In this document: piece by piece, positions 21,701 through 24,567 of the stretch
How positions within the stretch are numbered: position 1 is the first letter of the stretch
Layout: the number at the start of each line of letters is the position of its first letter
DNA from: Patescibacteria group bacterium
GTDB taxonomy: Bacteria > Patescibacteriota > Minisyncoccia > Phycocordibacterales > GWA1-40-21
NCBI GenBank assembly: GCA_018968925.1
Contig: JAGWZI010000001.1
Coordinates: 1-49,920, forward strand
DNA length: 49,920 nucleotides
Reading direction: 5' to 3'
Position numbers and translations under genes: made by a program
The notes under the pieces: model-generated
Told to the model about the DNA's origin: nothing
The model's database searches: none
What the model saw: only the letters and a program-made list of their open reading frames with translations

Positions 21701-24567
21701 GCACCTCTTGACTCAGGTGCGACAAAATTGAGGATTCGGTTTTTGACAAAGATTTTCTTGGCGATCGGCTTGCCGGCAAGCCACTTGACAACGTTCGCAT
21801 CCGCGAGCGCCGCCTTCTCCGTCTCCTCTTGCGATGCGTCGCTTTTCATTTCAACGCTGGCGCGGACTTTGCCGTTCACCTGGACGGCGATCGTCACCGT
21901 CGCGGACGCAAGCTTCGATTCGTCATATGCCGGCCAGGTTTCCGTCGCGAGCAAGGTTGTGTTCCCGAGATTCGCCCAAATCTCCTCGGTCGCGTGCGGC
22001 GCGAACGGCGAGAGGATCTTGATGAACGATTCATATCCGGCGCGTGAAAGCGCGTTGCCCTCATGGACGAATTTGACGAAGACCATCATCGCCGAAATGG
22101 CCGTGTTAAAAGCTGATTTTTCGATATCTTCCGAGACTTTTTTGATGGTCTTGTTCAGGAGCTGATCCGTTTCCGGGGACATTTTTTGAGCGATCATGTC
22201 TTTGGTGTTCCAGACGCGCTCGATGAAGCGGCGCGTGCCGACGATGCCCTGGTCGTTCCAGGCGACTTCGGCGCCGTGCGGGCCGAGGAATTGCATGTGG
22301 AGGCGCATCGTGTCGGCGCCGTACGATTTCACGATATCGTCCGGATTCACCACATTGCCCCGCGACTTCGACATCTTTTCGCCGTCCGGGCCGAGGACGA
22401 TGCCATGCGGCACGCGCTTCGCATACGGTTCTTTCGTTGCAACAAGCTTCCGATCGTAGAGGAATTGGTTCCAAAAGCGCGAATACAGGAGGTGCAAGGT
22501 CGTGTGTTCGAACCCGCCGAAATACAAGTCGACCGGCGTCCAGTACGCAAGCGGTTTCATGCCGGCGAATTCCTTTTCATTTTTCGGATCGGTGTACCGC
22601 AGCCAGTACCAGGAGCTTCCCGCCCACTGCGGCATGGTGTTCGTCTCGCGCTTACCCGCGCCGCCGCACTTCGGGCACGGTACATTGACCCACGACGCGA
22701 CATTCGCAAGCGGCGATTCGCCGGTGCCGGACGGTTCGTATTCCTTCACGTCCGGCAACATGACCGGCAAGTCCTTTTCGGGCACTGGCACGACGCCGCA
22801 TGTCGGACAATGGATGACCGGGATTGGCTCGCCCCAGTACCGCTGGCGCGAAAAAAGCCAGTCGCGGAGCTTGTATTTCGTCACCATTTTTCCGCCGACA
22901 AATTTGGTGATTTTTGAAACGGCATCGGTGCTTACCAGATTATTAAATTGACTTGAATTGATGAGAATACCTTCTCCAGTAAATGCCGTTTCAATGCCTT
23001 CAAGACCGCCGAGTAAAATCGGCATTTCCGAATGAGTCATTTTCGTCTTTTTGATCTCATCAAGCGTCATCCAGACAAGATCATGGATGGCCGATTCCTC
23101 GTCGCTCAAGGCTTCCCTGGTTTCATCGACAAGATCAAATATCATATTCCGCGTATGGGCGACCCGATTCACATTCTTGTGCGCGGCGAAAAATTCCGAC
23201 TGGGCGTCGCGCAGTTGTTTTGCGAGCTTCACATGCACATAACCGGTCTCTTCCCGGATCTCCCTGAGAGCCGCTTCAACCGGGTTTTCTCCGCTCTCGA
23301 TGCCGCCCATGACGAATGTCGTCCACGGCTGTTTCTTCCATTTGAGGCACAATATTTTGCCGTTCTTTGGATTCCTCAAGGCGACGATGACCGCGTCTCG
23401 AAATACCGTTTCCTTTCCTGGAACATGAGGGTTTCCCGCGTCCACCATCCGTTCAATAATCACTTCCTTGATCGGCAAGTTGTATTTTTTCGCAAACGCA
23501 AAATCGCGCTCATCATGCGCAGGCACTGCCATGACCATACCGGTGCCGTAGGTTGCAAGCACGTAGTCGGCGATGAACACCGGCACTTCCTCGTTATTCG
23601 CCGGATTCACGGCAAAGACGCCGTCGAGCTTTACGCCGGTCTTTTCCTTGTCTTCCGCGGTCCGCTCGATGTCCGTGCGCTTCTTCGCTTGTTCCCGATA
23701 TTTCTCGACGTCTTTCCAATTTTTAATTTTCGATTTCAATTCGTCGACGAGCGGACATTCCGGCGCAAGCACGACATACGTGACGCCGAAGAGCGTATCG
23801 GCGCGGGTCGTGAAGACGGCGATCTTCTTCTCGGAATCCTTTATTTTAAATTCGATTTCGCTTCCCTCACTCCGACCGATCCAATTTTCCTGCTGGAGCT
23901 TGATCGGTTCCGGCCATTCGGGCAAATCATGCAGGAGACCGTCGACAAGCTCGTCGGCATATGCCGTGATCTTTAGATACCACTGGCGAAGTTTCTTTTT
24001 CTCCACCGTTGCGCCGCACCGTTCGCACTTGCCGTTCACAACCTCTTCGTTCGCAAGACCGGTCTTGTCCTGCGGACACCAATTGATGATGCCTTCCGCT
24101 TCGTACGCGAGGCCGTGTTTCAAAAATTGCAGAAAGATCCACTGCGTCCATTTGTAATACGACGGATCGGTCGTATTCACCTCGCGCGACCAGTCGAAGC
24201 CGACGCCCCAAGAAAGAAGCTGACGTTTCGCGTTCGCGACATTTTCCGCCGTCGATATGCGCGGATGCACTTTGTGCTTGATGGCGTAGTTTTCCGCCGG
24301 CAAACCGAACGCGTCCCAGCCGATCGGATAGAGCACGTTGAAACCTTTCATGCGGAAATAGCGGGATACGACGTCGCCCGCCATGTACGGCCGCATGTGG
24401 CCCATGTGGAGGCCGGCGCCCGACGGATACGGAAATTCGATGAGAACGTACTTCTTCGGCTTTTTCGATCCGTTGTCGGCGGCAAAGACGCCTTTCTCCG
24501 CCCAGATTTTCTGCCATTTCCCTTCGATCGAGGAATGATCGTATGCGCCGTCCGGTGATGCTGTCAT
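21697..24567 (-). CDS. leuS: leucyl-tRNA synthetase with an internal Nudix domain insertion
   Basis: 956 aa with HMGH (aa 54-57), KMSKS, a CP1 editing domain ([37 protein letters not shown]) and [16 protein letters not shown]. About 155 extra residues carry a perfect Nudix box. Confidence 0.95.
   Translation of the reverse strand: [956 protein letters not shown]
22984..23454 (-). other. Nudix hydrolase domain nested in leuS (aa ~372-528)
   Basis: [23 protein letters not shown] matches GX5EX7REUXEEXGU exactly (nt 23239..23307). The upstream strands [29 protein letters not shown] are typical of the Nudix fold. It is in frame with LeuRS on both sides. Confidence 0.8.

Follow-up and report, generated by a model that had tools for sequence, protein, structure and literature searches.

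A complete Nudix hydrolase domain nested in the editing domain of a patescibacterial leucyl-tRNA synthetase, and its apparent turnover as an exchangeable cassette

The DNA studied here, called the window below, is a stretch of 49,920 nucleotides from the contig JAGWZI010000001.1 of a Patescibacteria group bacterium, a member of the candidate phyla radiation. Its reverse strand carries leuS, the gene for leucyl-tRNA synthetase (LeuRS), and within the CP1 editing domain of the encoded protein lies a complete, folded and apparently active Nudix hydrolase domain with conserved catalytic residues (Table 1). A first reading of the window (the original prediction) had proposed a complete, in-frame Nudix domain in an otherwise canonical LeuRS. 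The open reading frame of 956 residues, the HMGH, CP1 and KMSKS motifs and the Pfam profile PF00293 confirm this.

The host synthetase is complete, with all class I and editing motifs intact, and it is predicted to be active in both leucylation and editing. Against the equivalog model TIGR00396 (leuS_bact, NCBIfam) it scores 1003 bits, compared to a cut-off of 548.4, in two stretches with the insert between them. Similarly, the Thermus thermophilus LeuRS (1H3N) matches it with 735 bits (HMMER), and the Pfam editing domain PF13603 with 214 bits, the remaining profile positions matching beyond the gap. Throughout 86 aligned homologues, four of which are without the insert, the class I residues H54, G56, H57, K731, M732 and K734 are invariant, and so are the editing residues T253, T254, R255, D257, T258, H351, D352, R354 and D355. 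The GTG at residues 341-343 is invariant across homologues as well. The full-length AlphaFold2 model built on this alignment has a mean predicted local distance difference test score (pLDDT) of 89.7 and a predicted template-modelling score (pTM) of 0.79, and it fits the LeuRS-tRNA complexes 2BTE, 4AQ7 and 4ARC with target-normalised template-modelling (TM) scores of 0.82-0.85. The leucine-specific domain is absent, residues ~582-637 of the T. thermophilus enzyme having no counterpart in the 1H3N alignment (region of residues 729-731). In the NCBI database, the window protein (P0003, 100% identity) bears the label [quoted passage not shown]. Automatic naming appears to be degraded by the insert, despite the 1003 bits on the LeuRS equivalog.

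The borders of the insert follow from the HMMER alignment to 1H3N, in which residues 9-373 correspond to T. thermophilus residues 4-364 and residues from 523 onward to those from 371 onward. Because both flanks align and the segment between them does not, residues 374-522 are extra. The original prediction had estimated about 155 additional residues in a linker between domains; the extra segment is real, its length by comparison with T. thermophilus LeuRS is 149 residues, and its location is a different one. It takes the place of a six-residue loop, 18 residues past the editing aspartate (D355, equivalent to D347), and is therefore within CP1, which itself sits within the Rossmann fold. The architecture thus has three levels of nesting, with the Nudix domain in a surface loop of CP1. 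The spacing between the motifs PAHDxRD and RDWxxSRQRxWG reflects the same difference, with 209 residues in the window, 205-213 in insert-bearing LeuRS and 58-78 in canonical LeuRS (80 species-representative genomes). Canonical LeuRS has no homologous segment at the insertion position, in agreement with the prediction.

The Nudix nature of the insert is clear from both sequence and predicted structure. PF00293 matches residues 389-512 (E=3e-16) with 60.0 bits in the full protein and 64.5 bits in the excised insert, well above the cut-off of 21.1, so that the profile check bears out the assignment. The predicted Nudix box was exact by translation in both residues and coordinates (G421-X5-E427-X7-R435-E436-I437-X-E439-E440-X-G442-Y443), and it is the only one in the window, all frames being checked. 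Farther along the domain, a family-specific signature in the X-loop is a probable substrate-specificity element. In the full-length model, pLDDT is 85-95 across the insert and its junctions. Modelled alone on a 28-sequence alignment, the insert reaches a pLDDT of 93.8 and a pTM of 0.87 and has the strand and helix order of a Nudix fold. A Foldseek search with this model returned 695 PDB matches, 504 of them at E<=0.001, and the top 50 listed (all E <= 1.1e-6) are Nudix-family proteins without exception. The best neighbour is an uncharacterised MutT/Nudix protein of E. faecalis (2azw, TM 0.73/0.80), followed by 3smd, NudI, E. coli RppH, the T. thermophilus Ap6A (diadenosine hexaphosphate) hydrolase and several Ap4A (diadenosine tetraphosphate) hydrolases, at 15-24% identity.

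Table 1. Features of the leuS gene and its product, with positions in the window and in the 956-residue protein
Feature	Position (nt)	Strand	Residues	Basis or remark
leuS coding sequence	21697..24567	(-)	956 aa	Bacterial-type LeuRS; stop codon counted in; open reading frame list
HMGH (HIGH-type) class I signature	24397..24408	(-)	54-57	Translation
CP1 editing domain, N-terminal part	23449..23889	(-)	227-373	PF13603 positions 1-143/185; upstream of insertion point
Threonine-rich editing motif FTTRADT	23794..23814	(-)	252-258	Translation
Editing-site HDERD	23503..23517	(-)	351-355	D355 = T. thermophilus D347 (1H3N alignment)
Nested Nudix hydrolase domain	23002..23448	(-)	374-522 (149 aa)	Between equivalents of T. 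thermophilus LeuRS 364 and 371
Nudix box GX5EX7REUXEEXGU	23239..23307	(-)	421-443 (G421...Y443)	[23 protein letters not shown]; catalytic metal-binding helix; translation
Family-specific X-loop signature	23164..23199	(-)	457-468	[12 protein letters not shown]; 14-25 residues past box
CP1 editing domain, C-terminal part	22879..23001	(-)	523-563	1H3N alignment restarts, residue 523 = T. thermophilus 371
KMSKS class I signature	22363..22377	(-)	731-735	Translation

As the window comes from a metagenome-assembled genome, one may suspect an assembly or gene-calling artefact, that is, a chimeric contig of leuS and a Nudix gene. This explanation is effectively refuted. The insert is in frame with conserved CP1 on both sides, AlphaFold folds the whole protein confidently, and over 150 independent sequences that stem from different projects and assemblers share the junctions, which led us to reject a chimeric assembly. 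The error that we did observe is the opposite one, with short "free-standing" Nudix matches being fragments of frameshifted leuS genes.

The insertion is not singular to this genome. Instead, it is lineage-wide: public databases contain more than 150 LeuRS sequences with a homologous insert at the same site, coming from independent assemblies and for the most part from Patescibacteria. PF00293 is present in ~112 of the best 120 homologues (45-70% identity), which stem from NCBI, JGI, ENA and Logan assemblies. In one scan across GTDB species representatives, ~44 of the best 80 loci had the insert at this site. Carriers are labelled Paceibacteria/Parcubacteria, Taylor-, Vogel-, Magasanik- and Uhrbacteria, Saccharimonadia and others, and include Parcubacteria genome(s) from 2015. 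In the same GTDB scan, the insert was absent from several Patescibacteria (Adler-, Yanofsky- and Harrisonbacteria) and from all ordinary Firmicutes. Three gut metagenome-assembled genomes labelled "Bacilli/Tenericutes" (L018, L020, L021) carry a homologous Nudix insert in the same CP1 loop, and LeuRS hosts up to 87% identical to them (L076, L080, L069) are without it. This suggests a transfer of the cassette outside Patescibacteria, into these gut bacteria.

Conservation within the insert is concentrated on the residues expected of a working enzyme. Counted over 148 aligned inserts at the site of the window, hereafter site B, the box retains E427 in 144, R435 in 144, E436 in 148, E439 in 146, E440 in 147 and G442 in 147, and Nudix catalytic residues as a whole are retained in ~97%. 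The X-loop is conserved as well, with H463 in 126, K464 in 143, N467 in 140, R468 in 136, and phenylalanine or tyrosine at positions 459 and 460 in 138-139; R390, W415, E491 and W499 are further family-specific positions. The mean pairwise identity is 41% for inserts and 59% for hosts. Because these residues are conserved despite the low identity of the inserts, sustained selection has likely acted on catalysis and on a particular binding pocket. Among the few copies with degenerate catalytic residues are P0011, P0017, P0109, P0113, L011 and L022; they carry E439K, or E427Q together with R435M/A, and L022 is heavily degenerate. P0107, the nearest relative of the degenerate P0011 (90% host identity), has no insert, and the pair suggests an inactivation followed by deletion.

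The history of the insert differs from that of its host. Four LeuRS proteins among the top matches (P0008, P0066, P0092, P0107) have no insert, and their nearest hosts, at 78-90% host identity, are all carriers. P0008, the closest relative of the window LeuRS without an insert, is 75% identical to it over the host part and 70-78% over both flanks, and has 11 residues where the window has 377-527. P0092 is also without the HAD module that is found in its 89%-identical neighbour. Furthermore, similar hosts can carry dissimilar inserts. The closest hosts of the window (P0004-6, 75-76%) have inserts merely 37-38% identical to its own, and the inserts nearest to that of the window (64-68%) reside in hosts 53-59% identical. 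Along the alignment of the window protein with P0004, identity runs at 0.88-0.95 before the junction, falls to 0.32-0.50 inside the insert and recovers to 0.90 behind it. Conversely, P0004 and P0053 share 83% in their inserts and 64% in their hosts. The inserts are more alike than their hosts by over 5 points of identity in 268 of 10,585 pairs, and in 235 of the 529 pairs with close hosts (70% or more) the inserts are less than 45% identical. The nearest insert partner is among the 10 nearest hosts for 78 of 146 sequences.

One small host clade therefore shows three states, namely empty, cassette type X and cassette type Y. Plain vertical inheritance of the insert with its host was rejected, as insert and host identities are incongruent. 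We infer recurrent loss, replacement or re-insertion of the cassette, for which homologous recombination between the highly conserved CP1 flanks would be the simplest route. Judged from these sequence comparisons, LeuRS can do without the module, which acts like an exchangeable cassette.

Such behavior raises the question of whether the insert is a mere passenger, spreading and turning over among leuS genes by flank recombination or an insertion mechanism, and tolerated in a permissive loop with little or no LeuRS-linked benefit. The presence/absence polymorphism and the cassette replacement in near-identical hosts would fit a passenger, as would the multiple insertion sites and tandem duplications, the unrelated hydrolase domains filling other permissive loops of LeuRS, and the catalytically decayed copies, one of which has its nearest relative among the proteins that lost the insert. 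The insert is also lower than its host in G+C at third codon positions (GC3) at most loci. We nevertheless consider a passenger quite unlikely. Catalytic and family residues kept in ~97% of copies at a mean identity of 41% point to lasting purifying selection for the function of the enzyme. The insert is also kept across a very broad clade, and the free-standing homologues are ordinary conserved genes. Moreover, no Hint or splicing blocks of an intein and no homing endonuclease were found in the insert, for which Pfam gives NUDIX and a sub-threshold S-layer match, and the Pfam scan revealed no transposase signature.

Base composition adds little to the question of origin. The original prediction had described a dip in G+C relative to about 57% in the host. 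The dip is genuine, with 42.8% over positions 22921..23100; the window mean, however, is 54.8%, and the value lies at the 4.8th percentile of 180-nt windows. Over the whole insert, G+C is 51.6% (20th percentile) versus 55.2% in the remaining leuS, and GC3 is 61.7% versus 70.5% in the host part. A lower GC3 in the insert than in the host was also recorded at 8 of 9 other loci examined. The dip is thus weak and shared by the whole family, and a recent foreign origin, which it might have indicated, was rejected since the dip is marginal and low insert GC3 is family-wide.

The insert is a member of a distinct Nudix family, recognizable by the signature WKKxPW...GGxExGE...REx2EETGY...EFFAAHKDxNR. 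An exhaustive HMMER search of 1.84 billion representatives retrieved 474 proteins with E<=1e-3, of which 188 reach E<=1e-10, whereas a word-indexed homology search with the insert alone found just two fragments. Comparison of the best 150 family representatives with the LeuRS halves by BLAST placed 105 of them inside LeuRS and left ~45 without a LeuRS flank. Within LeuRS, the family occupies at least three sites: A after residue ~211 of the window protein, B, and C around residues 590-640. Some proteins carry two or three copies (for example P0123, P0124, P0135, P0286). Site-A copies mostly cluster together (60-89%) and share 30-46% with the site-B copy of the same protein. For a few, the best match is a site-B copy in another protein (65-70%). 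Because they group with other site-A copies rather than with their own site-B copies, the site-A copies are probably old paralogous insertions. Nested and free-standing copies interleave by similarity.

A second, unrelated synthetase has captured the same family. P0259 is a prolyl-tRNA synthetase (ProRS) with the Nudix domain between its anticodon-binding and C-terminal domains, carrying the motif FYAVHKDVNR. Together with P0288-P0291, it represents archaeal-type Nudix-bearing ProRS of 641-674 aa (five clusters, 61-100% identical), while ~115 close ProRS relatives of ~480 aa have no Nudix domain. With relatives named Nanoarchaeota or Woesearchaeota, the carriers are a small DPANN-type archaeal clade, as far as sequence labels can tell. 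No hosts other than LeuRS and ProRS were seen in the best 150 family representatives, save P0238 and P0271, whose non-Nudix N-terminal parts have no Pfam match and no ProRS match.

The Nudix domain is not the only hydrolase found in such synthetases. Among the best 120 LeuRS homologues, roughly one in four, with lengths of 1100-1520 aa, has further insertions at four or more other sites. By Pfam, these modules are Nudix (up to three per protein), Ham1 (ITPase family), HAD_2, and alpha/beta- or serine-hydrolase. Examples with extra nested domains are P0018, P0022, P0029, P0036, P0044, P0058 and P0110, as well as L028-L034, L037, L039 and L043-L045. Likewise, an isoleucyl-tRNA synthetase (IleRS) of 1167 aa has a nested His_Phos_1 domain (PF00300; L082 7386-10889, L083 7387-10890). 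It is flanked in L082 and L083 by two free-standing Nudix genes, a dUTPase, a thymidylate kinase and an ITPase-type NTPase, with a HAD gene in L084. The extra LeuRS modules and the IleRS-His_Phos_1 protein identify, by their domain assignments, the synthetases of these organisms as recurrent hosts for small phospho- and nucleotide-hydrolases.

Free-standing members of the family are proteins of 155-170 aa. The number of short family members, ~40, is an upper bound on free-standing genes, because some short matches are fragments of frameshifted leuS. This was the case for P0173 (L091 2897-5679) and for the open reading frames at L001 1050-3979 (P0002), and we therefore rejected the notion that all short matches are free-standing genes. 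In some metagenome contigs, frameshifted leuS copies yield spurious "MutT" gene calls.

Six free-standing contexts were verified, all on long contigs. P0274 starts 13 nt past argS, near the IleRS with His_Phos_1, a second Nudix gene, a dUTPase, a thymidylate kinase, an ITPase-type NTPase and a HAD protein. P0184, located 97 nt upstream of an alaS-like gene, has a dUTPase, ThyX, a dCMP deaminase and another Nudix gene nearby. P0150 ends 2 nt ahead of a leuS gene that itself carries a nested Nudix domain. P0154 starts 4 nt past fpg, P0145 adjoins another Nudix gene, and P0273/P0151 has no telling neighbour. An aminoacyl-tRNA synthetase (aaRS) gene thus directly abuts in three of the six contexts, for which P(>=3/6) is 0.001-0.009 at a chance of 4-8% per gene, a rough estimate from a small sample. 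Both the fusions and the gene neighbourhoods show the Nudix family to be specifically associated with synthetases.

Taken together, these observations favour an autonomous pyrophosphohydrolase tethered to the synthetase, a reading to which we assign a probability of roughly 0.55. Aminoacylation and CP1 proofreading would run as in ordinary LeuRS, and the Mg2+-dependent Nudix site would separately hydrolyse a nucleotide-type NDP-X compound (a nucleoside diphosphate linked to another moiety). Through tethering, a minimal genome would express the hydrolase constitutively and at a fixed stoichiometry with an essential enzyme, and the hydrolase may also come to lie close to the source of a by-product. 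The module would have gone through many losses, replacements and duplications, with recombination via the conserved CP1 flanks as the probable route.

Candidate substrates are dinucleoside polyphosphates (ApnA), such as Ap4A and Ap3A (diadenosine triphosphate), and non-canonical or oxidised (deoxy)nucleoside triphosphates ((d)NTPs), whose removal would be a form of "house-cleaning". The two carry roughly equal weight within the autonomous-hydrolase reading. Aminoacyl-tRNA synthetases produce Ap4A and Ap3A as side products. A link to synthetase chemistry is favoured because two unrelated synthetases have captured the family and several aaRS genes adjoin its members, and because the X-loop has an aromatic pair and the domain shows a weak similarity to Ap4A/Ap6A hydrolases and RppH. 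If this link holds, our best guess is that Ap4A-type by-products are the likeliest substrate. Nucleotide-pool sanitation, in turn, is favoured because dUTPase, ThyX, Tmk, ITPase and Fpg are among the neighbours and Ham1 and HAD modules are co-nested in LeuRS. The Ap4A or RNA 5'-end function that the original prediction had put forward for the nested Nudix domain is a plausible candidate.

Subfamily assignment was attempted through NCBIfam, a PDB sequence search and Foldseek, and none was decisive. The PDB sequence search with the insert gave weak matches (E 1e-5 to 1e-3), Ap4A/Ap6A hydrolases included. For RppH, the PRK00714 models reached 24-28 bits against cut-offs of 116-259, and the likeness in fold is generic (TM ~0.66); for the MutT 8-oxo-dGTPase, TIGR00586 and PRK10776 gave 17-18 bits against cut-offs of 98-148. 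A tyrosine ~16-18 residues past the Nudix box, in the X-loop, marks ApnA hydrolases (PMC5389931). The window has F459 and F460 at +16 and +17, and among the 148 inserts position 459 is phenylalanine in 89 and tyrosine in 49, and position 460 in 94 and 45, respectively.

Several points weigh against the tethered hydrolase, or against ApnA as its substrate. Phenylalanine is more frequent than the diagnostic tyrosine at the X-loop position, the NCBIfam subfamily models (RppH, NudB, MutT, NudE and others) all stay far under their cut-offs, and Foldseek neighbours of differing specificity score alike. The dUTPase, ThyX and Fpg contexts favour (d)NTP sanitation over ApnA, and ArgRS, whose gene adjoins one of the free-standing copies, is not known to make Ap4A. 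Furthermore, the aaRS-adjacency statistic comes from six contexts, the incongruence analysis is based on p-distances, and ~3-6% of the inserts are kept with degenerate catalytic residues, so that catalysis may not always be needed. A role as a defence-system module was also considered and rejected: the only PADLOC match is PDC-S07 with 25.7 bits, a generic Nudix likeness, and the context is housekeeping.

The position of the insert inside the editing domain, 18 residues past the editing aspartate, raises a different possibility. The domain could act in cis on the tRNA at CP1, clearing a blocking pyrophosphate-type modification or otherwise aiding proofreading. Toxic enzymes of the RelA-SpoT type pyrophosphorylate the CCA 3' ends of tRNA, and CP1 captures the 3' CCA end. 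Such 3'-pyrophosphorylated CCA ends would be one example of a target, with the HAD phosphatase modules of some relatives finishing the repair. The junction pLDDT of 85-91 suggests a fixed orientation, and the nearest folds include RppH, a pyrophosphohydrolase that acts on RNA ends. The tRNA CCA end is also the common macromolecular substrate of the several aaRSs to which the family is tied, and HAD and alpha/beta-hydrolase modules co-occur in LeuRS relatives. Yet the family is also present at sites outside CP1 and in ProRS, which implies that the geometry to the editing pocket is not conserved, and truly free-standing copies exist. The insert is readily lost as well, and no toxin or defence context was seen in the neighbourhoods, the PADLOC match being weak and generic. 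An action in cis is, in our view, decidedly unlikely.

The rigid joining of the module inside the mobile CP1, as modelled, would also suit a ligand sensor, in which a nucleotide or an alarmone bound to the Nudix fold allosterically tunes CP1 movement, editing or the rate of aminoacylation. Nudix-derived regulators exist, such as NrtR and the NUDT9H domain of TRPM2. A minority of inserts with E427Q and R435M/A substitutions is still kept, and non-enzymatic Nudix domains are an accepted class (PMC5389931). A full catalytic set in ~97% of copies is hard to reconcile with a sensor, though, and allostery specific to CP1 cannot explain the free-standing copies or the several positions in two synthetases. 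On balance, we regard a sensor as very unlikely compared to a tethered pyrophosphohydrolase.

Full-text literature searches brought up no account of a Nudix domain inside LeuRS or any other aaRS, in line with the original prediction, whose author knew of no described LeuRS of this architecture. A comprehensive review of the Nudix clan contains no mention of tRNA (PMC5389931). In a 2026 survey of domain insertions, covering 213 events, the LeuRS editing domain is always the inserted module and never the host (PMC13114784). The architecture is not new to the databases, which contain public sequences with automatic Pfam labels; its novelty appears to lie in its description as a biological feature.

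Comparison with known systems delimits what is unusual about it. Canonical bacterial LeuRS (1H3N/2BTE of T. thermophilus, 4AQ7/4ARC of E. coli) shares the class I core, the CP1 editing residues, and the anticodon-binding and C-terminal domains, but has no enzymatic domain of 149 aa in CP1, and has the leucine-specific domain that the window LeuRS lacks. Small single-domain Nudix proteins (2azw, 3smd from B. thuringiensis, NudI, RppH/NudH, and the Ap4A/Ap6A hydrolases 3i7u and 1vc8) have the same fold and a full box, with TM up to 0.80 at 15-24% identity. The insert differs from them by its own signature (WKKxPW, EFFAAHKDxNR) and by being nested in a synthetase rather than solely free-standing. 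The curated NCBIfam entry NF040702 ("ileS_w_GNAT"), an isoleucine--tRNA ligase with an N-acetyltransferase domain, is by its description likewise a bacterial class Ia synthetase with an extra enzyme domain. There, however, the synthetase is another one and the fold is GNAT, and the window protein matches it with 80.9 bits against a cut-off of 1999, solely via the LeuRS/IleRS core. NadM-Nudix and other bifunctional Nudix fusions (NF003786 gives a weak match) join a Nudix domain to a nucleotide-handling enzyme, but end-to-end and within one pathway, unlike the nesting in a domain of a translation enzyme seen here. The appended or inserted domains of eukaryotic aaRSs, and the lineage-specific CP1 insertions of archaeal and eukaryotic LeuRS, are mostly non-catalytic interaction modules or short structural insertions. 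They were likewise gained at the periphery, with aminoacylation kept; the insert in the window is instead a complete hydrolase with cassette turnover.

Synthetases are among the most conserved enzymes, and work on how they acquire domains has dealt mainly with eukaryotes. In the present case, an entire bacterial radiation bears an intact hydrolase within the LeuRS proofreading domain, and relatives contain up to three copies as well as other hydrolases. The capture by an archaeal class II synthetase and the aaRS-adjacent free copies suggest a functional link between this Nudix family and the chemistry of aminoacylation, for which Ap4A metabolism is an obvious and testable candidate. Near-identical hosts in the empty, type-X and type-Y states are a rare natural setting in which to study domain insertion, swap and deletion in an essential gene. 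A bolder extension, which we hold to be unlikely, is that the aaRSs of ultra-small symbiotic prokaryotes, Patescibacteria and DPANN archaea, are dedicated scaffolds for the exchangeable Nudix cassette and for Ham1, HAD, alpha/beta-hydrolase and histidine-phosphatase modules, all coupled to synthetase chemistry. If so, the cassette would destroy synthetase-made dinucleoside polyphosphates at their source, or repair blocked tRNA ends at the editing domain, and an unrecognised layer of translation quality control or alarmone control would reside inside the synthetase.

The neighbours of leuS in the window are housekeeping genes. Directly downstream (20577-21611, (-)) is a gene with sigma-70 region 4 and HARE-HTH domains (sigma70_r4). 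The same order of leuS and sigma70_r4-HARE-HTH occurs in L001 (4102-5151) and in the P0150 contig, two unrelated contigs, so that the synteny is conserved. Two long open reading frames, 14404-15960 (-) with 518 aa and 19174-20514 (-) with 446 aa, have no Pfam match at E<=1e-5. The sole RNA gene detected in the window is a tRNA-Glu(CTC) at 27222-27296 (+), with no tRNA-Leu near leuS. Positions 1479-14321 hold a fermentative carbon module of pyruvate phosphate dikinase, two tandem GH130 paralogues, acetate kinase and phosphoketolase; the GH130 paralogues are mannoside phosphorylase-like and have N-terminal extensions of ~320-350 aa.

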